From assembly GCA_934481515.1 (NCBI GenBank), contig CAKSPO010000003.1:4250-68249 (forward strand): 64,000 nucleotides of DNA, in the 5' to 3' direction. Both the position numbers and the translations under genes were made by a program. The notes beneath the pieces were generated by a model. That model saw only the letters and a list, made by a program, of their open reading frames with translations, was not told the origin of the DNA and ran no database searches. This DNA comes from an uncultured Eubacteriales bacterium (GTDB lineage Bacteria > Bacillota > Clostridia > Oscillospirales > CAG-272). The stretch's first letter is position 1; each line of letters begins with the position of its first letter. This document shows, piece after piece, positions 4,391 through 35,577 of the stretch.

Positions 4391-4510
4391 TATCTTATCA
4401 AGAGTAACGTAGTGACAGGCACGATGATGTTACAGCAACCTGCAGGAACGTAAGGTGCTAAATCCTGTTAGATGAGAGCCGGATTGCTCCGTCGGAACGG
4501 AGCTTTTTTG
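4391..4510 (+). promoter_or_regulatory. SAM-I (S-box) riboswitch with intrinsic terminator
   Basis: P1 pairs CTTATC (4394-) with GATGAG (4471-4476). Conserved ATCAAGAG, GATGA, AGCAACC and GGTGCTAAATCC elements are present. The terminator is CTCCGTCGGAACGGAG plus a T-run (4487-4510). It sits directly upstream of metK. Confidence 0.85.
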
Positions 4511-19691: not shown

Positions 19692-19963
19692 GGTGTTTTC
19701 CTCCTTGCAATAAAAAATGAAATAAAAAAAGTGCGCCAGCCGAAGCTCGCGCACGAAAAACACAAACTCCGGTTGTCGCCAAACAAACTGAATAACGCAT
19801 AGGTGCTTTGCTTATCGCGTCCCTGCCCACACAATTATTCGGAATTTGCGTTTTTACCAATTCCGGGGTATGGTTAGGGATTCCCGATTTTTGTGCGACA
19901 AAACAAGACTATACCCCCAAAGGGCATAGCGTACCGCTGCGCGAATGATTCAGTTTGTTTGGC
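19692..19963 (-). promoter_or_regulatory. ~270-nt structured 5' leader (candidate cis-regulatory RNA) of the collagen-LRR gene
   Basis: A perfect 16-nt inverted repeat (19963-19948 with 19793-19778) encloses 154 nt that contain several local hairpins. The terminator follows. The predicted TSS coincides with the first arm. Confidence 0.5.
19724..19754 (-). terminator. Intrinsic terminator/attenuator hairpin inside the LRR-gene leader
   Basis: The minus strand reads GUGCGCGAGC-UUCG-GCUGGCGCAC followed by U7. It sits about 32 nt upstream of the start codon, immediately before the RBS. Confidence 0.7.
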
Positions 19964-20289: not shown

Positions 20290-20334
20290 CGAAAACAAGA
20301 CCGAAAACAAGACCGAAAACAAGACCGAAAACGA
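20290..20334. repeat. 12-bp tandem repeat CGAAAACAAGAC x ~3.7
   Basis: Perfect copies at 20290-20301, 20302-20313 and 20314-20325, with a partial copy at 20326-20334. Confidence 0.95.
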
Positions 20335-20805
20335 TGCTTCCGGATGGTGGCGGGCGGTTGGTCTGACACGTTCTTCTTTGTTGCGGCGGCAAAGGGATAC
20401 TTTGGCGAATGGTTTCGGAAAAGAGGTGCGAAAGTGAAAAACGAAACTCATTCAGAATGTAGAAATTTTTGTCCGGAAAATGTGCAACTTTCACAAATCC
20501 AAAAAACGGGTTTTCTGACCTGAATTTCTTTTTTTGATGTCCGATTTGAAGTAAATAATATTTACTTTTCGTAGATTCGTCAAAAATGTATCAGATTGCC
20601 GTGGGTAAAAATACACAAAAAACAGGCTTGTTGGAATAAAAAGCACATATTTTTGTTAAATTAAATTTACTATCCGGAAAAAGGGCTTTTGGAAGGTGAA
20701 AAAAAGGGCAGAAGATTGTAAATTTTTTTCACATTGGATTTGACGCCTGAATGAATTTTCGCGCCGGAAGGGCGCCCCGGAGGAAAACGGTTGAAATGTT
20801 TTTGC

Positions 20806-20834
20806 TTGACAGGGCGGAGGTTTTGTGATATGAT
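20806..20834 (+). promoter_or_regulatory. Sigma-A-type promoter of the 7-gene operon
   Basis: TTGACA (20806-20811), a 17-nt spacer, then TATGAT (20829-20834). It sits after an AT-rich tract. Confidence 0.65.
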
Positions 20835-21061
20835 ATTACTATCTTATTTGAGGAAAACTCTGTTTTGCTGAAACAGTCCGGGGGTTTTCCGAATAGAAAT
20901 CCACCCGCTATGCCGCAGAAAATCCGGCGTTCCGGAGGATCGGCAGCAGGGTGGGAGATACGACATTTTTCCGCTGAGAGAGTTTTTTACGACTCTTTTT
21001 GCGGAATTTTTGCCGAAAAAACGGACAGAAGCCCTTTAACGATTTGCAGGAGGAAACGCAA

Positions 21062-24000
21062 ATGAGAAAAACACGATTCACGAGATTCTTGTGCCTGACA
21101 CTGGCGCTTTTGTGTCTTGTGAGCAGCACTGTGCTTGCCGTCAGTGCCGACAGCGGATCGGGTCATTCGAATACGACGGATAAGTCGATCAATGACTATC
21201 AGCAGACGCTGGAGACCATCAGTTACGACGAGTATCAGGCACTGTACTTCAAGGGGGTCACGAAAGCAACGGAAGCCACCGTTCTGCCGATGACCGACAA
21301 CTGGGTTTTCCGGAACGGCGGAATCACCATCACGATGACCGACGGCGTATGGAAAATGACCGACTCCGACGGAACCGTTTATACCTCGGCGGATGCCGCG
21401 GCGGAGGCGGGGCATGAGAAGAGCGATCTTGCCTATGTGGATTCCTTTGACGGTGTGACTGCGGTCTATACGCCGAGCGTCGGAACCATGACATGGAAGG
21501 TCAGCCTGACCGAGAAGAACATCCGCTCGGCAATGCTGTTCAACCTTTCTCTGCAATATTATCCCATTGCCTCCAAACCGAGTGCGGTGGAGCGGGAATT
21601 CTACATCAACGGGGAAGCGCCTTTCTCCGAAGCGCGTTCGCTGTCGCTGTCCAAGATGTGGTCCTCCTATCAGCAGGGCGGAACCTCCTCCGACAAACGG
21701 GAGATGGTGGGAACCTACCGTCTCGGGAAGGATGATACGCTGGAGGCGGTTGTACGCGACGCAGAGGATGCGGGATTTGTTTCCGGAAAGACCTATACGG
21801 TTTCCGACGACCGTTCTTCCGTCAGCGTGATTTATCCGAAGGTCTTCACCGTGAAAATCAATGCGTTTCTTGAGAAATACGGAATCCGGTTCTTCGGGAC
21901 GGATGCGGACAACAATGAAATCCGTCCTTCCCAGTTGCAGACGCCGGAATGGATGGAGTATCTGTTCCACGACAGCGAAGGCTTTTCCCATACGTATGCC
22001 GCAAGTGCATCCGAAATTTATGCAAGTGAAAACTTCGGATTCCTCATCGGACCGGATGCAGACGGGAATCTGGAATTTTCGCTGAAGAGCGTCAACGAGC
22101 CTGCCGTATTCTCTTCTCTGACGCTTCTGCCGTATACTTCTGCTCCTTCCTACGAGGATTACCGGAAGGACATTGTTTCCAAAGTGGGCGACGCCCAGGG
22201 AAAAAGCATCCTGAAGCTGGAAGCAGAGTATACCAGACATACCTCTACCAATGTTGTCTATCCGGTGGAGGACAGAACCTCTGCAAACTCCTCTCCGGTG
22301 GATACCACCCGCACAGTGCTGAATACCATCGGTACGGAAAAGTGGGAGACTGCGGGACAGTGGGTGGAATACACCTTCTCGGTGGATTCCTCCGGATTTT
22401 ATGATGTGTATTCCCGTTTCCGCCAGAGCTACCTTGACGGTATGTATGTCAACCGTTCTCTGCAGCTCTTTACCGAAGGCGACCGCGCGGACTACGTGAG
22501 CCGGAACGGAAATGATGCCGGCTACTATGACGGCCTCCCCTTTGCCGAGGCGGCAAAGCTCCGCTACAATTACGGAACCGGCTGGCAGGTGACCAAACTT
22601 GCCTCCGAGGGCGGCGAAAATGTTCCTACCTATCAATTGTATCTGCGCGCAGGCGAGGTTTACACGCTTCGTCTGGAGGTGACGCTCGGTTCCATGAGTG
22701 AGCAGGTACAGAAGATCCGGGCGATCCTGAATGCACTCAATGACGATTACCTTGCAATCATCAAGCTGACCGGAACGTCTCCCGACGACTACCGCGACTA
22801 CAGCTTTACACGGCTTCTGCCGGATACCATGATCGATTTCTTTACCCAGAAGGCAGCGCTGAACGAGGTATCTGCGTTCCTGAAGAACACTGCCGGGGTT
22901 GCTTCCACCTATTCCGGTACCTGTGACAAACTCAGTGCTCTGCTGGACAGAATGGGACTGGACGAAAACGAAATTGCAAAGAACCTTGAAACCTTCAAGA
23001 GCTATGTCGGCTCGCTCGGTACGTTCCTGACCGATGCCATGACGCAGCCGCTTCAGTTGGATTATCTGATGATTCAGCCTGCGGACGCGGAAGCGCCCAA
23101 GGGAGCGGCGGGCTTCTTCCGGACGCTGTGGCATGAGCTGAAAAGCTTCATTCAGAGCTTCTTCCGCGATTACAACAGCATGGGTGCAATGGAAAGCGCG
23201 AACGGCGCCGGCGAAACCATCAATGTCTGGGTTCCTTACGGACGTGACCAGGCAAACGTGCTCCGGAACCTTTCCACCAACGGCTTTACCCAGCAGACCA
23301 ATATTGCCGTAGACCTGAAGCTGGTCAACGGCGGAACCCTGCTGCCTTCCATTCTGGCGGGCATGGGACCGGATGTTTACCTCGGACTCGGACATGAGAC
23401 GGTCATCAACTATGCAATCCGCGGTGCATTGCTGAACATTGAAACGATGGAACATGATTCCGTGAAAGACTTCGAGCGGGAGATGCTGAAGGATTTCAAT
23501 GCAGCGGCACTGAACGTGCTCGGAATCGCCGATGCCGACAACGAGATGCATTATTACGGCTTGCCGGAAACGCAGGGCTTTTCCATGATGTTTGTCCGTC
23601 TGGATGTTCTGTACAATCTGGGCATTGAGATTCCCAAGACATGGGAAGAAATCTATGTGGCACAGTCCAAGCTGGAGTCCAATAATATGAAGATCGGTGT
23701 TACCACCGACTATAAGATTTTCCTCTATCAGATGGGAGGAGACCTGTGGGCAGATAACGGTATGCGGATCAATCTGGATTCCACAATGGGACTTGCGGCA
23801 TTTGAAAAGATGTGCGGCATGTTTACGCAGTATTCCTTCCCGTACCAGTATGAGGCGGCAAACCGCTTCCGTACCGGAGAAATGCCGATCATCATTGCAA
23901 GCTATACGGCACTGTACAACCAGCTGAAGGTATTTGCAACCGAGCTTGACGGCAACTGGACCTTCGTTCCGATGCCCGGCTGGGAGACCGTCAATGAGGA

Positions 24001-24817
24001 CGGCACCACCACCATCAACAACAGCTCTATTTCCGCTGTTTCCGCAGTCGTCATGGTAGACGGAGTTAAGAAGCGGGATGCGGCATGGGAGTACATGAAG
24101 TGGTACACCGGAGCCGAAGCGCAGTCTTCCTACGCAAACGAGATGGTGGCAATCATCGGTGACTCTGCAAAGCACTCCACCGCAAACCGCGAGGCGCTCA
24201 AGAGCATGCCTTGGACGCACGACGAGTATGTGGAGGTTTCCAAGCAGTTCGAAAACCTTGCTTCCGTCAACAACTACCCCGGATATTACTACATTGACCG
24301 TTACACCAACTTCGCATTCCTCGCTGCTTACAACGATGATGCAAACCCGACCACAAAACTGCTCAGCTATATCAATACCATCAACAACGAAATTACCCGG
24401 AAGCGGGCAGAGTTTGGTCTGGAAACGCTGGAAATCGGTCAGACGCTGGCAAAGAAGAGAATGGATCAGGCAACCGCTGCATTGAAGCTGCTGGAGGATA
24501 ATCATAAGAAGGATGCATATACCGCTGCCATCGAGCTTGCCAAATACGGTATTGCAAACCAGAAGGTTGCGCAACTGCGGGAGGCTTCCGAGCAGTTCAT
24601 GACGCTTTTGAAGGGCGAGTGGGACGGCTCGACGCGCACCATTACCAAGGTCAGCGGAAAGACCGCTGAAATGCCTTCCTATTATGTAAATGTCAGCAAG
24701 CAGACCATGGAGACCAAATCCGGAGGCTACAGAATAGAAGACCTGAACCTTCAGGAACTGCTCTACTTCATTTCCGAGTGCCTCGGAGATGCGGCGGATG
24801 CACTGGCTTCTTACTGA
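21062..24817 (+). CDS. Giant (1251-aa) extracellular solute-binding protein: N-terminal ~700-aa extension with CBM-like beta-sandwich + C-terminal family-1 sugar SBP module
   Basis: The start is MRKTRFTRFLCLTLALLCLV (AGGAGG RBS). It has a signal peptide or anchor without a lipobox. WETAGQWVEYTFSVDSSGFYDVYSRF has a CBM-like signature (nt ~22220-22690). From ETINVWVPYG onward (nt ~23210-24430) it reads as a typical LplA/CUT1-type SBP. Confidence 0.75.
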   Translation: MRKTRFTRFLCLTLALLCLVSSTVLAVSADSGSGHSNTTDKSINDYQQTLETISYDEYQALYFKGVTKATEATVLPMTDNWVFRNGGITITMTDGVWKMTDSDGTVYTSADAAAEAGHEKSDLAYVDSFDGVTAVYTPSVGTMTWKVSLTEKNIRSAMLFNLSLQYYPIASKPSAVEREFYINGEAPFSEARSLSLSKMWSSYQQGGTSSDKREMVGTYRLGKDDTLEAVVRDAEDAGFVSGKTYTVSDDRSSVSVIYPKVFTVKINAFLEKYGIRFFGTDADNNEIRPSQLQTPEWMEYLFHDSEGFSHTYAASASEIYASENFGFLIGPDADGNLEFSLKSVNEPAVFSSLTLLPYTSAPSYEDYRKDIVSKVGDAQGKSILKLEAEYTRHTSTNVVYPVEDRTSANSSPVDTTRTVLNTIGTEKWETAGQWVEYTFSVDSSGFYDVYSRFRQSYLDGMYVNRSLQLFTEGDRADYVSRNGNDAGYYDGLPFAEAAKLRYNYGTGWQVTKLASEGGENVPTYQLYLRAGEVYTLRLEVTLGSMSEQVQKIRAILNALNDDYLAIIKLTGTSPDDYRDYSFTRLLPDTMIDFFTQKAALNEVSAFLKNTAGVASTYSGTCDKLSALLDRMGLDENEIAKNLETFKSYVGSLGTFLTDAMTQPLQLDYLMIQPADAEAPKGAAGFFRTLWHELKSFIQSFFRDYNSMGAMESANGAGETINVWVPYGRDQANVLRNLSTNGFTQQTNIAVDLKLVNGGTLLPSILAGMGPDVYLGLGHETVINYAIRGALLNIETMEHDSVKDFEREMLKDFNAAALNVLGIADADNEMHYYGLPETQGFSMMFVRLDVLYNLGIEIPKTWEEIYVAQSKLESNNMKIGVTTDYKIFLYQMGGDLWADNGMRINLDSTMGLAAFEKMCGMFTQYSFPYQYEAANRFRTGEMPIIIASYTALYNQLKVFATELDGNWTFVPMPGWETVNEDGTTTINNSSISAVSAVVMVDGVKKRDAAWEYMKWYTGAEAQSSYANEMVAIIGDSAKHSTANREALKSMPWTHDEYVEVSKQFENLASVNNYPGYYYIDRYTNFAFLAAYNDDANPTTKLLSYINTINNEITRKRAEFGLETLEIGQTLAKKRMDQATAALKLLEDNHKKDAYTAAIELAKYGIANQKVAQLREASEQFMTLLKGEWDGSTRTITKVSGKTAEMPSYYVNVSKQTMETKSGGYRIEDLNLQELLYFISECLGDAADALASY

Positions 24818-24851
24818 TCCGTGTCTGAAATCTATGTGAGGAGAAAAATCA

Positions 24852-25796
24852 ATGGCAAAAAAATCAGAATATAAAGCAGTTGCCAGAAAGGATATGACCT
24901 ACAGACAGTGGATCTGGAAGGAAATGAAGCGGAACCGGATTGCGTATCTGCTGATTGCACCGTATGTGCTGGTTTTCACCGTTTTCACCATCGTCCCGGT
25001 CATCCTTTCCATCGTCATCAGCTTTACGGATTTCAACATGCTGCAATGGCCGAATATGGTTTGGCTCGACAACTACATCAACCTGTTCTTCTCGGATGAC
25101 ATTTTCCTGATCGCCTGCAAAAACACCTTCGTTTTTGCCGTCATCGTCGGACCTGCATCCTACCTGATGTCGTTTTTGGTCGCGTGGTTTATCAACGAGC
25201 TTCCCCCGCGGATCCGTTCGGTGATTACGCTGATCTTCTATGCACCGTCCATTTCCGGTTCGGTGTATCTGATCTGGAGCACACTGTTCTCGTCGGACTC
25301 CTACGGCTGGGTCAACGCAATGCTGATGGAGACGGGCTTTATCACAGAACCGGTCAACTGGTTCAAGAATGAAAAGTATGTCATGCCGCTGTGTATCATG
25401 GTTGCTCTCTGGACTTCTCTGGGGCACGCGTTCCTGTCCTTTATTGCAGGCTTGCAGGGCGTGGATCGCGCCCAGTATGAGGCGGGTGCCGTGGACGGCG
25501 TCAAAAACCGCTGGCAGGAGCTGTGGTACATTACACTCCCCAACATGAAGCCGCAGCTGATGTTCGGTGCGGTCATGTCCATTACAAACTCCTTCGGCTT
25601 CGGAGGCGTGGTTACGGCACTTTGCGGTTTCCCCTCGGTCAACTACGCGGCGCATACCATCATGCACCACCTGGAGGACTACGGCGGATCCCGATATGAG
25701 ATCGGTTATTCTTCGGCAATCGCTGTGGTGCTGTTCGCAATCATGATCGGCGCGAACATGGTTGTCAAGAAAGTTCTTTCAAAGGTAGGTTCGTGA
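24852..25796 (+). CDS. ABC sugar-transporter permease (MalF/LplB-like), pair 1
   Basis: 314 aa with six predicted TM segments and the EAA-loop YEAGAVDGVKNRWQELWYITLP. Confidence 0.9.
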   Translation: MAKKSEYKAVARKDMTYRQWIWKEMKRNRIAYLLIAPYVLVFTVFTIVPVILSIVISFTDFNMLQWPNMVWLDNYINLFFSDDIFLIACKNTFVFAVIVGPASYLMSFLVAWFINELPPRIRSVITLIFYAPSISGSVYLIWSTLFSSDSYGWVNAMLMETGFITEPVNWFKNEKYVMPLCIMVALWTSLGHAFLSFIAGLQGVDRAQYEAGAVDGVKNRWQELWYITLPNMKPQLMFGAVMSITNSFGFGGVVTALCGFPSVNYAAHTIMHHLEDYGGSRYEIGYSSAIAVVLFAIMIGANMVVKKVLSKVGS

Positions 25797-25797
25797 T

Positions 25798-26670
25798 ATG
25801 GCAAAATTAAGAACAAGAAAGCACAGAGTTGTCCTTTCCCGTTCGGCGGGAGGAGATGCCGGTATCACAGTCATTCTGACCATTCTCGGACTTTTCATGT
25901 TTCTGCCGATGGTATATGTCGTTTCCCAGTCCCTGAAGCCTTTGGATGAGCTTTGGATGTATCCGCCGCGGTTTCTGGTAAAAAATCCGACGTTTTCCAA
26001 CTTCCGGGATCTGTTTACGCTGATGAATGACTCCTGGGTTCCGTTTTCCCGTTACATCTTCAACACCGTATTTATTACGGTCGCAGGAACGTTCGGACAC
26101 CTCTTTATTGCCTCCATGTGTGCTTATGCACTGGCAAAGATCAAGTTCCCGGGAGCAAACGGAATTTTCAAAACCATCCGTACATCCCTGATGTTCCACT
26201 CCACCGTGACGAGCATCACCAGCTTCATGCTGATGAGCGCCTTCCATATGATTGATACCTACTGGGCGATTATCGTTCCGGCATGGGGATACACATTGGG
26301 GCTTTACCTGATGAAGCAGTTTATGGACACGCACGTTGCAGACGCGGTGCTGGAAAGCGCACGGCTGGACGGTGCCAGCGAAATCCGCACCTACTGGACC
26401 ATTGCGATGCCGATGGTCAAGCCGGCATGGCTGACGCTGATTATCTATTCGTTCCAGAGCCTGTGGAACTCCGGTTCTTCCATTTATATTTATTCCGAGC
26501 AGCTGAAATCGTTCAACTACGCGATCGGACAGATTACAGCCGGCGGTATCAAGCGTGCCGGAGCTTCGGCGGCTTCCACTGTGCTGATGATGATGGTTCC
26601 GATTCTGGTCTTTGTGATTACGCAGTCCAACATCATTGAGACCATGGGTTCCAGCGGTATGAAAGACTAA
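25798..26670 (+). CDS. ABC sugar-transporter permease (MalG/LplC-like), pair 1
   Basis: 290 aa with the EAA-loop LESARLDGASEIRTYWTIAMP. It starts 1 nt after the previous stop. Confidence 0.9.
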   Translation: MAKLRTRKHRVVLSRSAGGDAGITVILTILGLFMFLPMVYVVSQSLKPLDELWMYPPRFLVKNPTFSNFRDLFTLMNDSWVPFSRYIFNTVFITVAGTFGHLFIASMCAYALAKIKFPGANGIFKTIRTSLMFHSTVTSITSFMLMSAFHMIDTYWAIIVPAWGYTLGLYLMKQFMDTHVADAVLESARLDGASEIRTYWTIAMPMVKPAWLTLIIYSFQSLWNSGSSIYIYSEQLKSFNYAIGQITAGGIKRAGASAASTVLMMMVPILVFVITQSNIIETMGSSGMKD

Positions 26671-26681
26671 AGGAGGTCAAT

Positions 26682-28835
26682 ATGAAAAAATTAAGATCCA
26701 TATTGCTTGTCGTATTGGCACTCGTTACGATCATTCCGCTTGCAGTAGTCAGTACCAGTGCTTCGTCGGCATACCAGACATACACCTACTCCATTTCCGG
26801 TACCGCATTGTATTCTCCGGATGCTTATACGGCAGAGCAGGCTCTCGGCTGGCGTGAGATGAAAATGGATAAGGACTTCAAAAACCCCAGCGATATCGTC
26901 ACCGATAAGCAGGAAAATGTCTACATTGCCGATACGGGAAACAACCGGATCGTGGTTTTCAACCGGTATCTGGAGTATTCGTTCTCCATTTCCGCGTTTG
27001 TCAACGATCAGGGAAACAATGACTCCCTGCAGGGACCCCGCGGCGTATTTGTCACGGACACCTCCATCTGGGCATGCGATACCGACAAGAACCGTCTGGT
27101 GGAATTTGATCTGGAAGGAAATTTTGTCCGCATCGTTTCCGCACCGGAAAGCCAGCTGTTTGATCAGAGCGCCATCTATAAGCCGATTGCCATGGCAATT
27201 GACCAGTACGGCAGAATTTACGTCGTGTCCTCCTCTACCTATCAGGGGGTCATCGTCATGGATTCCGAAGGCGACTTTGTCGGATTCATCGGGGCACAGG
27301 CGGTTACCATTTCCGCATGGGAAATCATCTGGAGACGGTTTCAGACCGATGAGCAGAAGCTGTATTCCTCCAGCAAAGTTTCCACTGAGTATAACAACCT
27401 GACCATCAATGACGAGGGCTTCATTTATGTGACGACCTCCAGTATTGATGAAAGTTCTGTCAGAGGCGCCATTACGGCCAAGTCCAAGGAAGGAAAGTAT
27501 ATGCCTGTCAAGCTGTTGAATCCCGCAGGAAGCGAGATCATGCGGCGGAACGGGTTCTGGCCGCCGGCAGGTGAAATCGACTTTTCCACGACCACCGACT
27601 CTAAGGTCAAGACAACGGGTGTTTCTACCGTAACAGACGTTGCTGCAGGTCCGGAAAAGACGTGGACCATCATTGATTCCAAGAGAAACAAGCTTTACAC
27701 CTACGATTTCGACGGAAATCTGCTCTTCGCCTTCGGTGACAGCGGATCCATGCTGGGAAGCATCTCCAACATCCGCGGTGTCACGTATCAGGGAGATACC
27801 ATGTTGGTATTGGATGCGGGAGCCGGAAACGGCGGTGTGGTGGTCTATGAGAGAACCGAATACGGTGACCTGTTGCTGGAAGCAATTGCCGCAGAGAACT
27901 CTCTGGACTTCAATTATGCGATTGAATGCTGGAACAAAGTGCTTCAGCGAAACTCCAACTTTGACGCGGCGTATGTCGGAATCGGAAATGCGCTTTACCG
28001 CAGCGGCGAGTACAAAGAGTCCCTGCACTACTATGAGGTTGCGTACGATACCGAAAACTGGTCCAACTCCTATAAGGAAGTCCGGAAGGAGTGGATGGCA
28101 AATTGGTTCTTGCTGTTGGTTGCAATCATCATCATTGTCATTGTCGCCGTGGTGAAATTCTTCACGTGGGCAGGCAAGGTCAACAAGCGGGTTGCCACGG
28201 ACGGGCGGACGCACAAAACCTTCGGACAGGAGCTTTTGTACGGATTCTATGTGATCTTCCATCCGTTTGACGGATTTTACGATCTGAAGCATGAGCATCG
28301 CGGATCGGTACGCGCGTCGCTTGTGTTCATTGTGCTGACTGTTCTGGCGTTCTTCTATCAGAGCATCGGTACCGGATATGTAATGAACCCGACCAGAGAA
28401 TTTGCATCCATCTGGATGCAGGTTATTTCCGTGCTGGTTCCGTTCTTCCTGTTTGTTTTGGCAAACTGGTGCCTGACGACCCTGTTTGAAGGAGAGGGAA
28501 GCTTCCGGGATATCTTCATCGCGTGCTCCTATTCACTGTTGCCGCTGGTGCTTCTGCTTATTCCTGCGACGCTGTGCTCCAACTGGGTGGTTGCCACGGA
28601 AGCGACGATCATCACGCTGCTTTCCACAGTTGCGTTCATCTGGGTCGGAATCCTTTTGTTCTTCGGCACGATGGTGACGCATGACTATTCGTTGTTCAAG
28701 AATCTGATCACGATTCTGGGAACCATTCTCGCAATGGCTTGTATTGTGTTTATCATTCTGTTGTTCGGTATGCTGCTGAGTAAGCTGGTTGGCTTGGTGA
28801 CCAATATCGTAACGGAAATTCAGTACCGTGTATAA
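26682..28835 (+). CDS. Signal peptide + NHL-repeat beta-propeller + TPR-like segment + C-terminal multi-pass Yip1-like membrane domain
   Basis: 717 aa. NHL-type blades include VYIADTGNNRIVVFN, IWACDTDKNRLVEFD and RIYVVSSSTYQGVIVMD. The TPR-like segment is AIECWNKVLQRNSNFDAAYVGIGNALYRSGEYKESLHYYEVAY. Five or six hydrophobic helices start at WFLLLVAIIIIVIVAVV (nt 28092-28832). Confidence 0.7.
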   Translation: MKKLRSILLVVLALVTIIPLAVVSTSASSAYQTYTYSISGTALYSPDAYTAEQALGWREMKMDKDFKNPSDIVTDKQENVYIADTGNNRIVVFNRYLEYSFSISAFVNDQGNNDSLQGPRGVFVTDTSIWACDTDKNRLVEFDLEGNFVRIVSAPESQLFDQSAIYKPIAMAIDQYGRIYVVSSSTYQGVIVMDSEGDFVGFIGAQAVTISAWEIIWRRFQTDEQKLYSSSKVSTEYNNLTINDEGFIYVTTSSIDESSVRGAITAKSKEGKYMPVKLLNPAGSEIMRRNGFWPPAGEIDFSTTTDSKVKTTGVSTVTDVAAGPEKTWTIIDSKRNKLYTYDFDGNLLFAFGDSGSMLGSISNIRGVTYQGDTMLVLDAGAGNGGVVVYERTEYGDLLLEAIAAENSLDFNYAIECWNKVLQRNSNFDAAYVGIGNALYRSGEYKESLHYYEVAYDTENWSNSYKEVRKEWMANWFLLLVAIIIIVIVAVVKFFTWAGKVNKRVATDGRTHKTFGQELLYGFYVIFHPFDGFYDLKHEHRGSVRASLVFIVLTVLAFFYQSIGTGYVMNPTREFASIWMQVISVLVPFFLFVLANWCLTTLFEGEGSFRDIFIACSYSLLPLVLLLIPATLCSNWVVATEATIITLLSTVAFIWVGILLFFGTMVTHDYSLFKNLITILGTILAMACIVFIILLFGMLLSKLVGLVTNIVTEIQYRV

Positions 28836-28858
28836 TGACCGGCAGAGGAGGTTGTAAA

Positions 28859-31800
28859 ATGAAATCCATGAAAAAAATAGTTGCGACACTCTTAGCCGTC
28901 ATTTTAACCGTCAGTGCTCTGAGCGGTCTGTTCGTTATTGAGATCAGCGCGGAGGACACGGTCGCGGAGCTTCCGAAGATTGCGGATTACCCGATCACCG
29001 TGTACAGAAACCCGCAGGAAAAGCTGGCGACCATGACAAAAATGCTTTCCCGTGACGGATATGAGCTTTGGATTGACAAACAAAGCGGCGAGGTTGCCAC
29101 GGTCGAGACGGCATCCGGAAACATCCTGTTCTCCAATCCGTATGATGTTGCAGGCTCTACCGGTTCTGTTTCCACCAAGGGTCAGCTCCTGTCGCAGATT
29201 ATTATCAACTATACCGACAACGGTATGAGCAAGCAGCTTTACAGCTATGCGGATGCTGCCTGTAACGATCAGATCAATGTACAGCGGATCAAGAACGGTG
29301 TCCGTGTCGAGTATACCATCGGGCGTGAGGACGGAAGAAAGCTGGTTCCGATCTGGATTTTCGGCGAGAGCTATTCCAAGTACATTGTTGAGCCGATGAC
29401 GGCTGCGCTGAACGAGGGAAGCGTATCTCAGTTCCAGTACGACCGTTTTATGAACTTCTGGCAGACCGTTGATATCAATAAGAAATCCTCTGCGTTTCAG
29501 GCGCAGAACATTCTGAAGTATCCGGCACTGGGCGAAGCGTATCTGTACGATGAAAACGGAATCGTTTACATCACCGAAGAGGACGGCAGTTTTTATCTGA
29601 ACAACCGGGGAGAAAAGGTTCCGCAACGCCGGATTCTGCACGCTTTCAAAACCGACCAGATCTCCATCAGCGATAAAAACTGGGCAGAGACCATGATCAA
29701 AACCTACTGCTCGGATTATTCCTACGAGCAGATGGATGCCGACCATGAAGAAACCGGCTATGTTGCAACGGATGAACAGTATCCGGTGTTCAAGATGGCT
29801 CTGGAGTATTCCATTGACAAAAACGGAATGAGCGTCCGTCTGCCCTGCAACGGATTGCGCTACGATATGACGGCATATACTCTGGAGAGTGTCAGTATTC
29901 TTCCTTACATGGGTGCCGGCAACAATAAGAACGCGGGCTTTGTTTACACGGCGAAGGATCTGGAAGGCAATGAGACGATTGAGGAAACGGTCGGATATAA
30001 CTTCTATCCGGACGGCTCCGGCTCATTGTTCGATTTCGACCAGTTGAACACCACCTCTACCACGGTGGTGCGCGGAAAGGTGTACGGACTGGACTATGCC
30101 TACCATGAAATCAGCGGTGTAACGTATCAGAAATCCATCCGGTATCCGGTTTACGGAACGGTGTCGAGCGAAGTGTATTACGAGTACTCCTATCTGGACA
30201 CGGTGGATAAGGATACCGTGCTGGTATCGGAGCGCGTTTCCCACACGGTCAAGACGCTGGAAGAGTTGAAGAAGGAGCTGGCTGACAAGACGCTGACCAC
30301 CGGAAAGCTGGAGAACAGCATCCGTGTGGAGCAGAAGGGGTTCCTTGCGATGATTGAATCCGGAGATTCCCTTGCGGAAATTTCCACCTATCATGCAGGC
30401 TCCCTCAGCAGCTACAGTATGATGATGAACTACTTCAACCCGAAGCCGAAGGACAGCTACGATATTTCCGAATCCATTTCCGTCACGTCCAGCAAGACCA
30501 TGACGGTGGTGTCCGACCGGAAATATACCGGAAGTCTTGCGTTGCGGTATATTATGCTGTGCGATAAGAACGTGGCGGCAAAGGCGAAGGAGACAGAGCC
30601 TTCCTATACGTACTACGATGCAAGCTGGCTCGGAATGGCGGAAGCCTACCGCGATTATCTCTGCGAGAGCGGCGCACTGTCGGCACTGACGGCAGACGAG
30701 GTAGAGAAGGATATTCCGCTTTACATTGAGTCGTTCGGTGCTCTGGAAACGGTTGAGACCATCGCCACGATGCCTGTCAACGTGATGACACCTTTGACGA
30801 CGTTTGAAGATTTGATGACCATGTACACCGAGCTTTCCGAGCGCGGAATCAAAAACATCAACTTCAAACTGACGGGCTTTGCCAACGGAGGAATGTATGC
30901 GACGGTTCCGTACCGCCTGAAGTGGGAAAAGAGCGTCGGCGGCAGTGACGGCTTCCGCGACCTCGTACAGAAGGCGGATGCCATCAATGCACGCGGGGAC
31001 GGTTCGCATCTGGGACTTTATCCCGACTTTGATTTCGCATACTTTACGAACACTTCTCTGTTTGACGGACTGAGTCTGAAAAAAGACGCGGTTCGTACCA
31101 TCGACAACCGGTATACTTCTTACCGGCAGTACAGCGCAACCCGGCAGAGCTACACCAGCTTCTATCAGCTGGCAATCTCTCCGTCGAGATACGACAAGTT
31201 CTACACGAAGTTGCTTTCCAATTATGAGGAGTACGGGTTGCGCACCATGTCGGTGGCATCTCTCGGAAACACACTGAACTCCGACTTTGATGAGGACGAT
31301 CCTTACAACCGCGAGGACAGCAAGGAAAACACCGTCGATGCGCTGAAGGAGATCACCGGAAAGGGATACCGCCTGATGGCAGACGGCGGCAATGCCTATA
31401 CGTGGGCATATATGGATCACCTTCTGAATGTGGATCTGGATTCCAGCCGGTATGTCAAATCCAGCGCGTCCATCCCGTTTGTCGGCGCGGTTCTGCACGG
31501 CTACATTCAGTTTGCGGGAACTCCGCTCAACAAGGAGGGCGACACCAACTATGCAATCCTCCGTGCTTTGGAGAACGGTTCCGGAATTTACTTTGTTCTT
31601 TCCTACCGCAACACGGATAAGCTGAAGGAGGATCTCTACCTCAGCCAGAACTATTCCGTGCGATATGATATCTGGCTGGAGGACGTGGTCAAATACTACT
31701 CCAAACTGAACGGACTTTTGCGGGATGTACAGACCAAAGCAATCATCGGTCATGAGTTCCTGGTCGGTGAGCGTGTCCTGGACCTGGATGAACTGGAAGC

Positions 31801-33091
31801 CGACATTGCGGAAAAGCTGAAGAATGCGATCCGCGAGGAGGATAAAAAGCAGCAGGCTCAGGAAACGGAGCAGCTGATTTCGGTTGCCGACGCATGGGGC
31901 GTGGCGTTCAATGCCGAGAAGACCATGAAAAACATTCTCAGCGCCATGCAGATTGCCAACAATGGTGAGACCGGTTCCCGCGACTATATCAACAGCTACA
32001 AGAACTTCTTCAATTCCAATAAGGATCTTTCTTCCGAGGTAACCGCATTGCTCGCCGCCATCAAGAGCGGATACGAGACCAGCACCTCCGGTGTTGAGCT
32101 TGCCAAAAAGATCGCGGAGCTGGATGCATTCCTGCTTGCCGGCGGTTCCAAGGCAGATACCGGAGAGGATTCCGGAAACACTCCTGAGGAAGGAACCGAC
32201 GCTCCGGCAACCACTGCCGGGGATGGAGTCGGGGACGGTTCTTCGACGGAAACGCCCGGCGTGGATCGGGAACTGACGGACGAGGAGCGGGAGGAGCTGA
32301 AGAAAGCGCTTTCCGAAGAGGATCTGAAGCTTGCGAACGAAATGGAAGCCGAGATTGCTGCGCTGCAGTCTGCGGTTCGGAATTCTTACCGCGATAACGT
32401 CAGCGCATTGACCACGAAAATGGCTTCTCTGCGGGAATACACCACAAAGCTGATGTCCTACTCCGCAAAGATGCAGGCATGGCTCAAGGAGGCGCAGGAT
32501 CTGTTGGTCAACCTGGACAAAGCCATTCAGCTGGTAGAGAATACACCGCTTTATGACGAGGATCCGGATACGCGTGCAAAGCTTTTGTCTGCAATGGAGG
32601 AGTACCGCGCACTTGCCGCAACGTACATGAGCAGTGTTCAGGCGCAATACAATCTGAACAAATCCTATCTGGAAGAGGGCGGAAGAAATTACGTTCTGAA
32701 GGTTGCCTGCGACGAGATCCGGAAGCACTTTGTGAACGGCTTTGCAGAAGGCGGAATTTATGCCGCAAACTACGGAGCTTATGAAGAGCTTTTCCTGTCG
32801 CTTTGCGAGAACTTCATTTTCGACGAAGAGGACATTCTGAATGCCATCAAGACGACGGACGATGACGACGGCAAGCAGGACGAAACCGTGACGGATACAA
32901 ACGACCGGTATGTTGTCAACAACAATCGGATCGTTGCGGTAACCTACGGAGACCGCAATGCTGCAACAGGCGAAAAAACGGCATACAAGACATTCGTCCT
33001 CAACTACAACACTTACGCCGTGCGTGTCACGTACAACAACATTACATATACAATTCCGAGCGGCGGATATGTAGTGGTTCTTTACGATTGA
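28859..33091 (+). CDS. 1410-aa secreted/N-terminally anchored protein of unknown function (resembles what I recall as DUF5696; possible TIM-barrel glycosidase-like core) with long coiled-coil/acidic C-terminal region
   Basis: The start is MKSMKKIVATLLAVILTVSAL (AGGAGG RBS). Core strings are ILPYMGAG, FYPDGSGSLFDF, IPLYIESFGA, NINFKLTGFANGG and LMADGGNAYTW. From aa ~985 onward it is heptad-like and Glu/Asp-rich. Confidence 0.6.
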   Translation: MKSMKKIVATLLAVILTVSALSGLFVIEISAEDTVAELPKIADYPITVYRNPQEKLATMTKMLSRDGYELWIDKQSGEVATVETASGNILFSNPYDVAGSTGSVSTKGQLLSQIIINYTDNGMSKQLYSYADAACNDQINVQRIKNGVRVEYTIGREDGRKLVPIWIFGESYSKYIVEPMTAALNEGSVSQFQYDRFMNFWQTVDINKKSSAFQAQNILKYPALGEAYLYDENGIVYITEEDGSFYLNNRGEKVPQRRILHAFKTDQISISDKNWAETMIKTYCSDYSYEQMDADHEETGYVATDEQYPVFKMALEYSIDKNGMSVRLPCNGLRYDMTAYTLESVSILPYMGAGNNKNAGFVYTAKDLEGNETIEETVGYNFYPDGSGSLFDFDQLNTTSTTVVRGKVYGLDYAYHEISGVTYQKSIRYPVYGTVSSEVYYEYSYLDTVDKDTVLVSERVSHTVKTLEELKKELADKTLTTGKLENSIRVEQKGFLAMIESGDSLAEISTYHAGSLSSYSMMMNYFNPKPKDSYDISESISVTSSKTMTVVSDRKYTGSLALRYIMLCDKNVAAKAKETEPSYTYYDASWLGMAEAYRDYLCESGALSALTADEVEKDIPLYIESFGALETVETIATMPVNVMTPLTTFEDLMTMYTELSERGIKNINFKLTGFANGGMYATVPYRLKWEKSVGGSDGFRDLVQKADAINARGDGSHLGLYPDFDFAYFTNTSLFDGLSLKKDAVRTIDNRYTSYRQYSATRQSYTSFYQLAISPSRYDKFYTKLLSNYEEYGLRTMSVASLGNTLNSDFDEDDPYNREDSKENTVDALKEITGKGYRLMADGGNAYTWAYMDHLLNVDLDSSRYVKSSASIPFVGAVLHGYIQFAGTPLNKEGDTNYAILRALENGSGIYFVLSYRNTDKLKEDLYLSQNYSVRYDIWLEDVVKYYSKLNGLLRDVQTKAIIGHEFLVGERVLDLDELEADIAEKLKNAIREEDKKQQAQETEQLISVADAWGVAFNAEKTMKNILSAMQIANNGETGSRDYINSYKNFFNSNKDLSSEVTALLAAIKSGYETSTSGVELAKKIAELDAFLLAGGSKADTGEDSGNTPEEGTDAPATTAGDGVGDGSSTETPGVDRELTDEEREELKKALSEEDLKLANEMEAEIAALQSAVRNSYRDNVSALTTKMASLREYTTKLMSYSAKMQAWLKEAQDLLVNLDKAIQLVENTPLYDEDPDTRAKLLSAMEEYRALAATYMSSVQAQYNLNKSYLEEGGRNYVLKVACDEIRKHFVNGFAEGGIYAANYGAYEELFLSLCENFIFDEEDILNAIKTTDDDDGKQDETVTDTNDRYVVNNNRIVAVTYGDRNAATGEKTAYKTFVLNYNTYAVRVTYNNITYTIPSGGYVVVLYD

Positions 33092-33110
33092 GAAAGGAGG
33101 CAATCTACTT

Positions 33111-34076
33111 ATGACAAACGAGATCAATGCCGGCATGCCGGCAGCAGCCAAAAAGAAGAAAAAGAAAATTGCCTCCCTTGACAGACGCAAGGCGCGGGCG
33201 GGATGGTTCTTTGTCCTTCCGTTCATCATTGGATTTGTCATTATTTATATTCCGATGATTTTCCAGTCCATTCAGCTGAGCTTCAGTGAGATCATTTACG
33301 AAGGCGGCGATTACTACCTGAATTTTGTCGGATTCAAAAACTATCAGGATGCACTGTTCGTTGACCCGGAGTTCGTACAGACCCTGGTCAGCGGACTCAA
33401 GCAGCTGGCATTCGACATTCCCGCCATTCTGATTTTCTCTCTGTTCATGGCGGTAATGCTGAATCAGAAGGCAGCAGGAAGAGCGTTCTTCCGTTCCGTT
33501 TTCTTCATTCCCGTCATTCTTTCCACCGGTATTATGGAGACCATTGCCAATGCCGATATTCTGAATGACTATATGGATGAGGGAAGTATAGATACGGGAG
33601 CCGGTACCAGCGCGGCGGATCAGTTGATTTCCACCATGGATATTGAGCGATTGTTTGCCAATATGAAGGTCGGAACCGAGATTGTCACCTACGTTACCAC
33701 CGCCATCAACAATATTTACGATATTGTCAACCGTTCCGGCGTGCAGATGCTGATTTTCCTTGCCGGTCTGCAGTCCATTTCTCCCGCGATTTACGAGTCG
33801 TGCAAGATTGACGGCGCAACCTCGTGGGAAACCTTCTGGAAGATTACCTTCCCGATGATCAGCCCGATGATTCTTGTCAACGGCGTTTATACCATCATTG
33901 ACTCCTTCACCACCGAGAGCAATCAGGTTATGGTCTACGTCAAAAAGGTGTACAGCGAATCCAGTGAGATGAGCACGGCAATGGCTTGGATCTATTTTCT
34001 GATCGTTATGCTGATTGTTGCGGCAATTGCGGGAATTCTCTCCGCGTTTGTCTTCTATCAGCGGAAGAATGACTAA
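33111..34076 (+). CDS. ABC sugar-transporter permease (MalF-like), pair 2
   Basis: 321 aa with the EAA-loop YESCKIDGATSWETFWKITFP. AAAGGAGG RBS. Confidence 0.88.
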   Translation: MTNEINAGMPAAAKKKKKKIASLDRRKARAGWFFVLPFIIGFVIIYIPMIFQSIQLSFSEIIYEGGDYYLNFVGFKNYQDALFVDPEFVQTLVSGLKQLAFDIPAILIFSLFMAVMLNQKAAGRAFFRSVFFIPVILSTGIMETIANADILNDYMDEGSIDTGAGTSAADQLISTMDIERLFANMKVGTEIVTYVTTAINNIYDIVNRSGVQMLIFLAGLQSISPAIYESCKIDGATSWETFWKITFPMISPMILVNGVYTIIDSFTTESNQVMVYVKKVYSESSEMSTAMAWIYFLIVMLIVAAIAGILSAFVFYQRKND

Positions 34077-34095
34077 GGAAGGAGGAATTTACCTG

Positions 34096-35355
34096 ATGAA
34101 TACACCGAATGTTGAAAAGACGCCGACGATTCGGCGCGAGACCAAAAACAAGATCCGTGTCAATTTCGACCGCACACCGCTGTCGGAACGTCTGAAGGCG
34201 AAGTTCCTTTCCTTCTACTTTCTGCAAAAAGTAGTTCTGTGGATTTTCCGCATGGTTCTGATGATCGGTATTTCCTATATCGTCATTTATCCCTTCCTGA
34301 CGAAGATCGCCGGTTCCGTCATGGCGCCGGAGGATTTCGTGGATGTCACGGTTCGCCTGATTCCGAAGCACCTGTCCCTGGATATTTACCGCGGAATTAT
34401 TACAGAGCTAGGATATTTTGAAGCCCTGCGGAATACCTTCCTGCTTTCTCTTTCCTGTGCCATCGTGCAAACTCTGATCTGCTCTCTGATCGGTTACGGA
34501 TTTGCAAAGTTCAAGTTCCGCGGACGCAATCTGATCTTCCTTCTGGTCATGCTGACCATGATTATTCCGCACCAGACGCTGCAGCTTTCCATGTATATGG
34601 AATTCCGCTTCTTTGATGTACTCGGTATTGTCCGGTTGCTCAAGGGCGGCGGAATCGAATTCTTCGGACATAATATCAAGAATATCGGCGCTGTTGCAGA
34701 GGTGACGGACGAATTCGGCAGAGTGATTACAGAAGCACAGCCGGGCGTTCTCGCGGGCTTCTTCGAGAAGCTGAACGTTTTGCCGGATGCCATCCGCTGG
34801 GGAGAGCACGTTACGGCAAGCGGCATCACCGAGTATTCGGTAAATATGGAGCTGACGCAGCGCGGAATCGACCTGACCAATACCTATTTCCCGATGCTTC
34901 TTCTGTCGCTTGGCGGTCTGGCGTTCAAGAACGGATTGTACATCTTCCTTCTGCGCCAGTTCTTCCGCGGGATTCCGGACGAATTGGAAGAGTCTGCTTA
35001 CATGGATGGCTGCGGAACCTTCCGTACCTTTGTGCAGATCATTCTCCCGCTGTCCATCCCGATGATGATTACGGTGTTCCTGTTCTCCTTCTGCTGGCAG
35101 TGGACGGATAACTTCTATACGCCTCTGCTGGTGAAGATCGGAAGCACAAGCAACACGAAATTCCTGATTGACCTGATAGACGCAACCAAGATCAGTGAGT
35201 TGACCAAGGCAATCAAGAATACGGATCAGACCCTCTATACCACTGCATTCCGGAACACGTGCGGTCTTTTGATTATCGCACCGCTGGTTGTTCTCTATGC
35301 CTTCTGCCAGAACTTCCTGGTACAGGGTATCGAGCACTCCGGTATTGCAAACTGA
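34096..35355 (+). CDS. ABC sugar-transporter permease (MalG-like), pair 2, with ~95-aa extra loop
   Basis: The start is MNTPNVEKT (GGAGG RBS). It has the EAA-loop EESAYMDGCGTFRTFVQIILP. A non-hydrophobic insertion runs from FFDVLGIVRLLKGGG to RGIDLTNTYF (nt ~34608-34890). Confidence 0.85.
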   Translation: MNTPNVEKTPTIRRETKNKIRVNFDRTPLSERLKAKFLSFYFLQKVVLWIFRMVLMIGISYIVIYPFLTKIAGSVMAPEDFVDVTVRLIPKHLSLDIYRGIITELGYFEALRNTFLLSLSCAIVQTLICSLIGYGFAKFKFRGRNLIFLLVMLTMIIPHQTLQLSMYMEFRFFDVLGIVRLLKGGGIEFFGHNIKNIGAVAEVTDEFGRVITEAQPGVLAGFFEKLNVLPDAIRWGEHVTASGITEYSVNMELTQRGIDLTNTYFPMLLLSLGGLAFKNGLYIFLLRQFFRGIPDELEESAYMDGCGTFRTFVQIILPLSIPMMITVFLFSFCWQWTDNFYTPLLVKIGSTSNTKFLIDLIDATKISELTKAIKNTDQTLYTTAFRNTCGLLIIAPLVVLYAFCQNFLVQGIEHSGIAN

Positions 35356-35397
35356 TGGGGAACGGATTTCAGATTTCATCGTTTTCCCAAAGATCCG

Positions 35398-35431
35398 AAA
35401 AGGGGCGCCGCAAAAGCGGCGCCCCTTTTTG
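35398..35431 (+). terminator. Strong rho-independent terminator ending the 7-gene operon
   Basis: AAAAGGGGCGCCGC-AAAA-GCGGCGCCCCTTTT followed by TT. Confidence 0.9.
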
Positions 35432-35535
35432 TGAAAGAATCTGTAAACGGAAAAACGATTGGCTCCCATCGGTTTTCGGCGAAAACGCAGCCCGCCTCCG
35501 CTTTCTCAGGGGATAACATGGTTCCGGATCAAGGA

Positions 35536-35575
35536 ATATGCACCGCTAAGGTCAGACGCCCTTAGCGGTGCATAT
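35536..35575 (-). terminator. 16-bp perfect palindromic hairpin 2 nt downstream of the obg stop
   Basis: ATATGCACCGCTAAGG pairs with CCTTAGCGGTGCATAT. The U-tract is weak. Confidence 0.4.
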
Positions 35576-35577
35576 AC

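Follow-up and report, generated by a model that had tools for sequence, protein, structure and literature searches.

A conserved seven-gene operon of uncultured gut Clostridia combining two CUT1-type permease pairs, a Yip1-family protein and a DUF5696 protein related to GH129 and GH101

Organisation of the operon and its predicted products

The window considered here is a 64-kb stretch of DNA from an uncultured Eubacteriales bacterium (contig CAKSPO010000003.1), and the system in question is an operon that occupies its region 20806-35434. The operon contains seven open reading frames (ORFs) on the plus strand, which encode, in this order, a giant solute-binding protein (SBP), two permeases of the ATP-binding cassette (ABC) importer type (P1 and P2), a membrane protein combining NHL, TPR and Yip1 domains, a large DUF5696 protein and a second pair of permeases (P3 and P4) (Table 1). 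A first-pass annotation, made from the sequence alone, had already described this content, together with a promoter, a leader of about 220 nt, seven tightly spaced genes and a terminator. All these elements were recovered, the leader measuring 227 nt, and each domain call was confirmed with Pfam and NCBIfam. The successive intergenic gaps are 34, 1, 11, 23, 19 and 19 nt and, as had been claimed, each gene is preceded by its own ribosome-binding site, of the AGGAGG type except for a weaker one at P2 (AAGGTAGG).

The promoter is the sole 11/12 match found by a consensus scan of positions 20300-35700, and its block is kept in more than 30 orthologous loci. Within 20795-21061, the promoter block and the 22 nt located 5' of the SBP start (TTTGCAGGAGGAAACGCAAATG) are near-invariant between species whose proteins are about 55-60% identical. 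In the leader itself, alignment A3 shows conservation of the first ~25 nt and of the last 22 nt preceding the ATG (TTTGCAGGAGGAAACGCAA) only; the middle part varies freely and the total length ranges from ~190 to 255 nt across species. A riboswitch or other known structured RNA was considered for this leader and rejected: no Rfam family matched, only the two ends are conserved, and folding prediction gave a weak 5' hairpin of 4-5 bp and nothing more. The conserved CUCUGC at the 5' end might base-pair with the GCAG(G)AG of the Shine-Dalgarno region, a pairing that covariation cannot test because both segments are invariant. At the other end of the operon, the terminator was not listed by the consensus scan, presumably because the A/U pairs of its stem consume the T run. 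Neither a regulator nor a sensor is encoded within the operon, in agreement with the first-pass annotation, and no transcriptional regulator was found anywhere in the window, nor in the gut Clostridia loci described below.

Table 1. Coordinates of the operon features in the 64-kb window, with the evidence for each
Feature	Positions	Strand	Evidence
Promoter TTGACA-17-TATGAT, TG extended -10, sigma-70-type	20806..20834	+	11/12 consensus match
5' leader, 227 nt, from -10 box to SBP ATG	20835..21061	+	alignment A3
SBP, 1251 aa	21062..24817	+	ORF, Pfam, model, hydropathy
CBM6/CBM35-like beta-sandwich in SBP extension, ~aa 384-545	22211..22696	+	AlphaFold model, Foldseek
SBP_bac_1 domain, aa 741-1021	23282..24124	+	Pfam E 4e-19
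P1, MalF/UgpA-like permease, 314 aa, EAA loop EAGAVDG	24852..25796	+	Pfam/NCBIfam
P2, MalG/UgpE-like permease, 290 aa, EAA loop ESARLDG	25798..26670	+	Pfam/NCBIfam
NHL-TPR-Yip1 membrane protein, 717 aa	26682..28835	+	Pfam, hydropathy
DUF5696 protein, 1410 aa, one N-terminal hydrophobic segment	28859..33091	+	Pfam E 4e-125
N-terminal beta-sandwich of DUF5696, ~aa 50-570; invariant E316, D385, D412	29006..30568	+	model, deep alignment
(beta/alpha)8 barrel of DUF5696, ~aa 590-960	30626..31738	+	model, deep alignment
Coiled-coil/low-complexity insertion of DUF5696, ~aa 975-1330	31781..32848	+	model helices, coiled-coil-only PDB matches
C-terminal beta domain of DUF5696, ~aa 1345-1410	32891..33088	+	conserved columns, alignments A1 and A4
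P3, MalF/UgpA-like permease, 321 aa, EAA loop ESCKIDG	33111..34076	+	Pfam/NCBIfam
P4, MalG/UgpE-like permease, 419 aa, EAA loop ESAYMDG	34096..35355	+	Pfam/NCBIfam
Intrinsic terminator, GC-rich hairpin then U run	35394..35434	+	-33.8 kcal/mol, z = -7.4

The SBP is composed, from the N- to the C-terminus, of a signal or anchor segment, beta-rich modules, a helical bundle, a CUT1-type SBP domain and a helical tail. The SBP_bac_1 match, which provides the binding protein expected of a CUT1 importer, is confined to residues 741-1021, and the nearest PDB sequence is the maltodextrin-binding protein 1elj. A protein of public metagenomes (P0121) is 100% identical to it. Residues 1-750 were modelled with AlphaFold (mbb10ca73f64c, pLDDT 80.6) as beta-rich modules and a helical bundle. 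Foldseek matched the region of residues ~384-545 to carbohydrate-binding modules (CBM) of families CBM35 (2vzp) and CBM6 (2cdp and 5fui), with probabilities of 0.99-1.0 and target TM-scores of 0.50-0.57. This model and search revealed no catalytic fold in the extension. The protein has a single N-terminal hydrophobic segment without a lipobox in all three lineages compared (window, Butyrivibrio and Paenibacillus, see below). This N-terminus is signal-peptidase-I-like or anchor-like (window 21062-21150; locus L088, 5005-5100; locus L089, 4303-4400). Two extra SBPs of the Butyrivibrio module do carry classical lipoboxes.

CUT1 importers of Firmicutes usually consist of one SBP, one pair of transmembrane domains (TMDs) and an ATPase, and they often use a shared orphan ATPase, MsmX. 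The operon encodes the corresponding pair, MalF-like plus MalG-like with EAA loops, twice (P1/P2 and P3/P4). BPD_transp_1 was seen in all four permeases, the score of P2 (23.7 bits) being slightly below the Pfam cut-off of 26.4. The four EAA loops quoted in the first-pass annotation were found as described and are conserved in 74-78 orthologues each, as well as in the Butyrivibrio and Paenibacillus lineages. According to hydropathy, P3 has an enlarged loop between transmembrane (TM) helices TM3 and TM4, and P4 has an insertion of ~100 aa at the same place; both features are absent from P1 and P2. By analogy with the topology of MalF and MalG, these enlarged loops are predicted to face outward. 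The P4 orthologues of Butyrivibrio and Paenibacillus have 314-337 aa, against 419 aa in the window. The absence of a nucleotide-binding domain (NBD) from the operon, also noted at first reading, was confirmed: the NBDs of the window are those of SufC and of a fused exporter only, with 28-29% identity to UgpC, and no ATPase of the MalK, MsmX or UgpC type was found in the operon, in the window or in 84 related loci. We infer that a shared ATPase is encoded elsewhere in the genome.

The NHL-TPR-Yip1 protein starts with a signal peptide, followed by an NHL beta-propeller (~aa 30-400, Pfam E 5e-9), a TPR region (~399-456), a TM helix (476-494) and a 5-TM Yip1 domain (Pfam match at residues 523-692, E 3.6e-16). 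The five hydrophobic segments characteristic of the Yip1 family (PF04893) were located by hydropathy at 545-699, after the extra TM helix. Propeller and TPR together form some 450 residues, predicted to be extracellular, ahead of this helix. In Butyrivibrio, NHL and Yip1 are separate proteins, split exactly at the boundary between the ectodomain and the TM-Yip1 part. The sole functional precedent for a bacterial Yip1 protein beside an ABC system is YknW, which modulates the assembly of the ABC transporter YknXYZ (PMC4887032), an exporter.

The DUF5696 protein and its relation to GH129 and GH101

The first-pass annotation had reported no recognisable glycoside hydrolase (GH) in the operon. This is true for simple sequence motifs only. 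Indeed, a phmmer search of the DUF5696 protein against the PDB gave no match, a Pfam scan at E <=10 returned DUF5696 plus noise and no GH family, and the profile of alignment A1 retrieved from the PDB only coiled-coil artefacts, originating in the C-terminal region. Fold comparison and deeper profiles place the protein in the superfamily of GH129 and GH101, as detailed below.

Residues 1-1050 were modelled with AlphaFold at a mean pLDDT of 70, the N-terminal domain being good and the barrel partly poor. Foldseek comparison of this model with the PDB gave the GH129 entries 5opq (E 1e-14) and 5wzn (NagBb, 1e-10) and the GH101 entry 3ecq (1e-6), all with a probability of 1.0, followed by GH97 and GH13 barrels. 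The target TM-scores of the GH129 entries are 0.50-0.54, with an identity in the Foldseek alignments of only 8-11%. The predicted structure comprises the three domains typical of the GH129/GH101 fold, i.e. a beta-sandwich, a (beta/alpha)8 barrel and a C-terminal beta domain, the last being also conserved in the Butyrivibrio and Paenibacillus proteins (alignments A1 and A4). Model and conserved C-terminal domain agree with the architecture described for DagB: N-terminal beta-sandwich, TIM barrel and C-terminal Ig-like domain (PMC5698469). The insertion of ~350 aa between the barrel and the C-terminal beta domain is specific to the lineage and is absent from the Butyrivibrio and Paenibacillus proteins (757-839 aa). 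It is partly acidic and Gly/Thr-rich; the SBP and P4 of the same lineage are likewise longer than their Butyrivibrio and Paenibacillus counterparts.

Once the coiled coil had been trimmed and the alignment deepened to 32 sequences including the Butyrivibrio and Paenibacillus proteins (alignment A4), the profile gave NagBb as its top match in the PDB (E 0.003). In the opposite direction, a 66-aa NagBb fragment matches the Pfam family DUF5696 above its gathering score (E 9e-9), with Glyco_hydro_101 second; used as a query, this fragment returned three short fragments only, and nothing by tblastn against plasmids. A longer NagBb-type protein was reconstructed from a frameshifted gene on contig L093 and reproduces the NagBb numbering of Trp398, Asp435 and Glu478. 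Its best Pfam family is DUF5696 (E 1.6e-22 over barrel and C-terminus), ahead of Glyco_hydro_101 and Glyco_hydro_129, and hhalign aligned it with A4 over 311 columns (94.9% probability, E 4e-8). The gene from which it was reconstructed (L093, 3075-4970) carries two frameshifts that divide it into three ORFs (309, 41 and 276 aa) and adjoins a divergent AraC-type regulator, itself in two ORFs; it may be a pseudogene or reflect sequencing errors.

Similarity to a characterised GH129 member is found at the profile level only. By predicted fold and by profile, the DUF5696 protein is a distant member of the GH129/GH101 superfamily. Since the NagBb-type sequence scores best on DUF5696 and profile homology links the two, DUF5696 can be regarded as a wider superfamily around GH129; it contains 3,767 clusters at 50% identity (E <=1e-3). 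Through this protein, the operon is related to a characterised family of carbohydrate-active enzymes (CAZymes) at the superfamily level, and its locus matches no described utilisation system that we found.

Considering the candidate active site, nine polar residues are invariant among the 32 sequences of A4, three in the N-terminal domain (E316, D385, D412) and six in the barrel (D809, R818, N845, H880, N891, E905). When residues were counted among 270 members of the family, R818, N845, H880, N891 and E905 remained invariant bar one exception and few gaps, and D809 was Asp in 253 and Asn in 12. As judged from these alignments, the pocket is under strong constraint. The catalytic residues of NagBb were mapped by three MAFFT modes and hhalign. 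In every one of the three MAFFT modes, Asp842 is the counterpart of its acid/base, Glu478, and position 842 is Asp or Glu in 220 of the 270 members. For its nucleophile, Asp435, two of the modes gave Ser798 as the counterpart, with which the spacing is consistent; hhalign pairs it instead with Thr805, within a stretch aligned at low confidence. At position 798, 263/270 members have Ser, and Asp is seen only in the proteins of Butyrivibrio and Paenibacillus. Position 723, located at the end of strand beta3 next to beta4, is Asp or Glu in 266/270 and Thr in these same two proteins. The two positions are reciprocal (window 30257-31252), with Asp/Glu723 accompanying Ser798 and Thr723 accompanying Asp798.

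Hydrolytic activity of the protein is not assured, because the NagBb nucleophile position is Ser in this clade. The alignments can be read in two ways: the carboxylate may have shifted from beta4 to beta3, or the clade may have ceased to be a hydrolase. No paper on DUF5696 (PF18952) was found in the literature searched, which also held none on Yip1 with NHL and a permease and nothing relevant on GH129 with ABC transporters or Firmicutes. Within this literature, neither the relation of DUF5696 to GH129 nor the pattern at Ser798/Asp723 had been noted before.

The second of these readings could be taken further, to a DUF5696 protein that is here a non-catalytic binder of a glycan or glycoconjugate and delivers it to P3/P4 as the SBP does to P1/P2, the operon then consisting of two tandem units joined by the NHL-Yip1 protein. 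Such an arrangement would match the gene order, [SBP-P1-P2]-Yip-[DUF5696-P3-P4], the single SBP available for two permease pairs in the window lineage, the prevalence of Ser at the aligned nucleophile position and the presence of enlarged, predicted extracellular loops in P3/P4 but not in P1/P2. We consider it improbable, however, as the Butyrivibrio and Paenibacillus orthologues retain the Asp within the same module, and many carboxylates of the barrel (D723, D809, D853, E905) are invariant in the manner of an active site, although a binding site would be conserved too. We know of no ABC importer in which a partner with a glycosidase fold replaces the SBP.

Conservation and genomic setting of the cassette

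Relatives of the DUF5696 protein were sought in one genome per species and were found in 314 species-level genomes; 80 loci were kept and listed, and 84 loci were fetched for the study of gene order. The 80 listed loci belong to metagenome-assembled genomes of uncultured Clostridia, Eubacteriales and Oscillospiraceae, with Clostridium sp. CAG:448 as the one cultured-type exception, and the sources, where named among them, are ruminant hindgut, rumen and human gut. The order SBP-P1-P2-Yip-DUF-P3-P4 was observed in 68 of the 84 loci; the other 16 are all cut by contig ends, so that there is no counter-example. Across loci, P2 (73-92% identity) is the most conserved protein, with P1 at 72-86%, followed by P3, the Yip1 protein and P4. 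The extracellular SBP (36-64%) and the DUF5696 protein (39-59%) evolve fastest.

Searching annotated plasmids by tblastn revealed the same module in two places, with a DUF5696 identity of 22-24%. In Butyrivibrio fibrisolvens pNP243, it comprises a GH43, a 977-aa SBP, two permeases, NHL, YIP1, DUF5696, two permeases and two further SBPs, with a histidine kinase and a response regulator upstream. On a 509-kb replicon of Paenibacillus cellulosilyticus, it comprises UgpC, a 986-aa SBP, two permeases, a 719-aa YIP1 protein, DUF5696 and two permeases. The DUF5696 orthologues of the two modules are WP_073386913.1 in Butyrivibrio and WP_110042929.1 in Paenibacillus. The adjacency of Yip1, DUF5696 and sugar-permease genes that the first-pass annotation had mentioned for other Firmicutes is therefore real, and the seven-gene synteny on which its proposal depended extends beyond the window to these two distant lineages as well as to the 68 complete loci. 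The permeases of the window are 56% (P1), 58% (P2), 43% (P3) and 43% (P4) identical to those of Butyrivibrio, and 42%, 36%, 33% and 35% identical to those of Paenibacillus. Given this position-by-position orthology and an identity of only ~25% between P1 and P3, we conclude that the duplication of the permease pair predates the split between Clostridia and Bacilli. On these sequence comparisons, the module is ancient, with an order fixed in at least three distant Bacillota lineages of two classes.

The gene of a UgpC/MsmX-type ATPase that heads the Paenibacillus module is, at the sequence level, the best available evidence for an ATP-driven importer that borrows its ATPase in the other lineages. 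It also bears on a second use suggested by the first-pass annotation, namely that the membrane domains of the importers transport nothing and only anchor a large exoprotein complex. An operon without an ATPase gene and with very large extracellular partners would suit such a role, but the loops at which an ATPase docks are conserved throughout the orthologues and in both distant lineages, the ATPase gene is present in Paenibacillus, and the permeases are the slowest-evolving parts of the module. Use as mere anchors is in our view hardly tenable.

The two lipoprotein SBP genes located after P4 in Butyrivibrio raise another possibility, that of two ordinary, independent CUT1 importers co-transcribed with an enzyme and an unrelated membrane protein, without a supercomplex and with the SBPs of the second importer encoded elsewhere. 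A scan with the Butyrivibrio protein alone retrieved three close relatives only. In a 74%-identical Butyrivibrio relative, the module is likewise kept in its extended form, with GH43 and both additional SBPs. CUT1 systems of Firmicutes commonly share parts such as MsmX. Against this, the strict order of seven genes and their position-wise orthology exceed the usual loose membership of a polysaccharide utilisation locus (PUL), the permeases are unusually constrained (72-92% identity for P1/P2, versus 36-64% for the SBP and the enzyme), and the operons of the gut Clostridia lineage neither contain nor adjoin an additional SBP gene. We therefore regard two independent importers as unlikely.

The flanks of the 68 complete loci vary and consist mostly of housekeeping genes. 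In the window, sufC and sufBD lie upstream of the operon (15717-17352), and SufBD is found upstream in 22 related loci; the position of the operon is thus partly conserved in the lineage, which argues against a recent horizontal transfer. A mobile element or recently transferred segment was rejected on this ground and on the unremarkable composition of the region. Downstream of P4, GH31 genes occur in 5 of the 68 loci (L006, 18916-21447, and four others), in some as a tandem pair, whereas locus L001 has genes for oxidoreductases and a GH78 rhamnosidase at this place. No other CAZyme neighbour was observed in the gut Clostridia lineage, and no consistent substrate signal emerged from the neighbours across the 68 loci.

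Housekeeping flanks without a regulator fit a constitutive cellular role as well as foraging. The operon could then belong to a housekeeping system that remodels or recycles a glycopolymer belonging to the envelope of the cell itself. Its neighbours in the gut Clostridia lineage are core genes, namely suf, obg, der, alaS, dxs and an rRNA methyltransferase gene; there it has no regulator and a conserved near-consensus promoter with an extended -10, and it is present in the 314 species genomes. This explanation appears quite unlikely to us, since the Butyrivibrio copy is carried by a plasmid beside a two-component system, a GH43 and extra SBPs and the Paenibacillus copy by a secondary replicon, both settings being typical of accessory carbohydrate utilisation, and since CBM6/35-like modules are typical of enzymes acting on exogenous polysaccharides.

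Two other elements of the window were recorded. Directly upstream of the operon and divergent from it (17514-19763, minus strand) lies the gene of a 749-aa protein with BspA-type leucine-rich and collagen triplet repeats, which varies between strains: it has 725 aa in L085 and is broken up into small ORFs in L086, on contigs that are otherwise near-identical. A SAM riboswitch (4392-4478, Rfam RF00162, 64.7 bits, E 9e-13) precedes the ORF at 4571-5746.

Proposed function and comparison with known systems

We propose, with a probability of about 0.5, that the operon encodes a self-contained surface and membrane machine that captures a glycan, trims it and imports the products. Briefly, the CBM modules, and perhaps the NHL propeller, would hold a polymeric glycan at the surface. 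The GH129-like protein would release mono- or oligosaccharides from it, possibly through a catalytic centre rearranged in this clade, in which Asp723 at the end of beta3 would replace the Asp found at the end of beta4 in other members. The SBP domain would pass the products to the permeases, and one ATPase of the MsmX/UgpC type, encoded elsewhere here and within the operon in Paenibacillus, would energise both pairs. The Yip1 domain might serve as a membrane scaffold holding the parts together, by analogy with YknW for YknXYZ. The setting of the module in Butyrivibrio, with its two-component system, GH43 and two lipoprotein SBPs, is typical of sugar-utilisation loci. The first-pass annotation had proposed a non-canonical machine for glycan capture, processing and import. 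This interpretation was strengthened by the synteny, by the CBM6/35-like modules and by the Paenibacillus UgpC gene; its premise that no hydrolase-like protein is present was wrong.

Several points weigh against this proposal. It leaves the two permease pairs unexplained, and nothing observed ties the proteins into one complex. By its sequence, the giant SBP (140 kDa) has no lipobox to account for its retention at a Gram-positive surface. The barrel model falls below a pLDDT of 50 at residues 727-777, 802-821 and 863-909. The nucleophile position is occupied by Ser in nearly all members, and the suggested relocation of the carboxylate depends on two outgroup sequences and on the low-confidence segment in which hhalign sets Asp435 opposite Thr805. 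Finally, the flanks in the gut Clostridia offer housekeeping genes in place of a regulator or a consistent CAZyme neighbour, and no experimental work on this family was found in the literature searched.

As to the substrate of the proposed machine, the fold relatives in GH129 and GH101 cleave alpha-linked GalNAc or 3,6-anhydro-galactose. The gut habitat of the carriers would fit mucin. Butyrivibrio has a GH43, single loci have GH78 or GH31, and Paenibacillus is a soil organism.

A bolder version holds that the seven proteins form one stable supercomplex, in which the NHL-TPR-Yip1 protein bridges two TMD dimers, the CBM-bearing SBP serves P1/P2 and the GH129-derived protein, its nucleophile relocated or lost, docks directly on P3/P4 through their enlarged outer loops and feeds this pair with its product or ligand, no classical SBP being involved. 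We regard it as possible, if doubtful.

The operon can be compared with four kinds of known systems. (i) With CUT1 importers (MalEFGK2, UgpBAEC and MsmEFGK-type), it shares the SBP_bac_1 domain and the MalF/UgpA and MalG/UgpE pairs with EAA loops and, as in MsmX-dependent systems, its ATPase would be encoded elsewhere, a UgpC-type gene being present in the Paenibacillus module. It differs from them by two permease pairs per SBP, by an SBP of 1251 aa with a CBM-like and helical extension of ~740 aa and without a lipobox, and by Yip1 and GH129-like proteins fixed between the pairs, the whole being conserved as one cassette. (ii) With GH129 (NagBb of Bifidobacterium bifidum, 5wzn, an alpha-N-acetylgalactosaminidase; DagB/ZGAL_3152, 5opq, a 3,6-anhydro-D-galactosidase) and the GH101 endo-alpha-GalNAcases, the DUF5696 protein has the three-domain architecture in common, and the profile homology to NagBb spans the whole barrel, with the acid/base Glu478 opposite Asp842. 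Unlike GH129, the DUF5696 protein is predicted to be extracellular, is more than twice as long, contains the ~350-aa coiled-coil insertion and has Ser798 at the nucleophile position; moreover, NagBb and DagB are stand-alone enzymes, not described in such a transporter cassette (PMC5698469, PMC8106489). (iii) YknWXYZ of Bacillus also includes a Yip1 membrane protein encoded with an ABC transporter and needed for its assembly (PMC4887032). YknYZ is, however, an exporter of the MacB type and not a type I importer, and YknW has no NHL/TPR ectodomain, so the functional parallel is by analogy only. (iv) The PULs, both those of Gram-positive bacteria and the Sus-like "utilisome" of Bacteroidota, resemble the operon in that they encode a transporter along with glycan-binding modules and a glycosidase-like protein, and a stable surface complex is possible. 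The window lineage differs from them by an ABC importer in place of SusCD, by the absence of a regulator and of catabolic genes, and by a fixed rather than mosaic composition.

By analogy, the system resembles a CUT1 importer coupled to a surface CAZyme, i.e. a Gram-positive PUL. Of the components of such a locus, the window lineage has a transporter and a CAZyme-like protein but no regulator; a histidine kinase, a response regulator and a GH43 are present in Butyrivibrio. The system departs from every described case that we found by its two TMD pairs, its CBM-fused SBP without a lipid anchor, its NHL-Yip1 protein and a member of the GH129 superfamily in which the canonical nucleophile is missing, all fixed in a single cassette across Bacillota.

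These results give DUF5696, on which no literature was found, an anchor in GH129 and GH101 and hence a biochemical hypothesis, the best-sampled clade being one without the canonical nucleophile. Among the uncultured Clostridia of ruminant and human guts the cassette is abundant, and it does not follow the textbook layout, in which one SBP is combined with a single TMD pair and a single ATPase. If the supercomplex existed, it would provide the first case of an enzyme-fold protein feeding an ABC importer and of two different TMD dimers sharing one assembly, and it would be a Gram-positive counterpart of the utilisome. Two carriers are culturable, Butyrivibrio fibrisolvens D1 and Paenibacillus cellulosilyticus KACC 14175. 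The function of the cassette, once known, would inform on the glycan taken up by these gut bacteria, on the role of Yip1 for ABC transporters and on importer assemblies coupled to enzymes.

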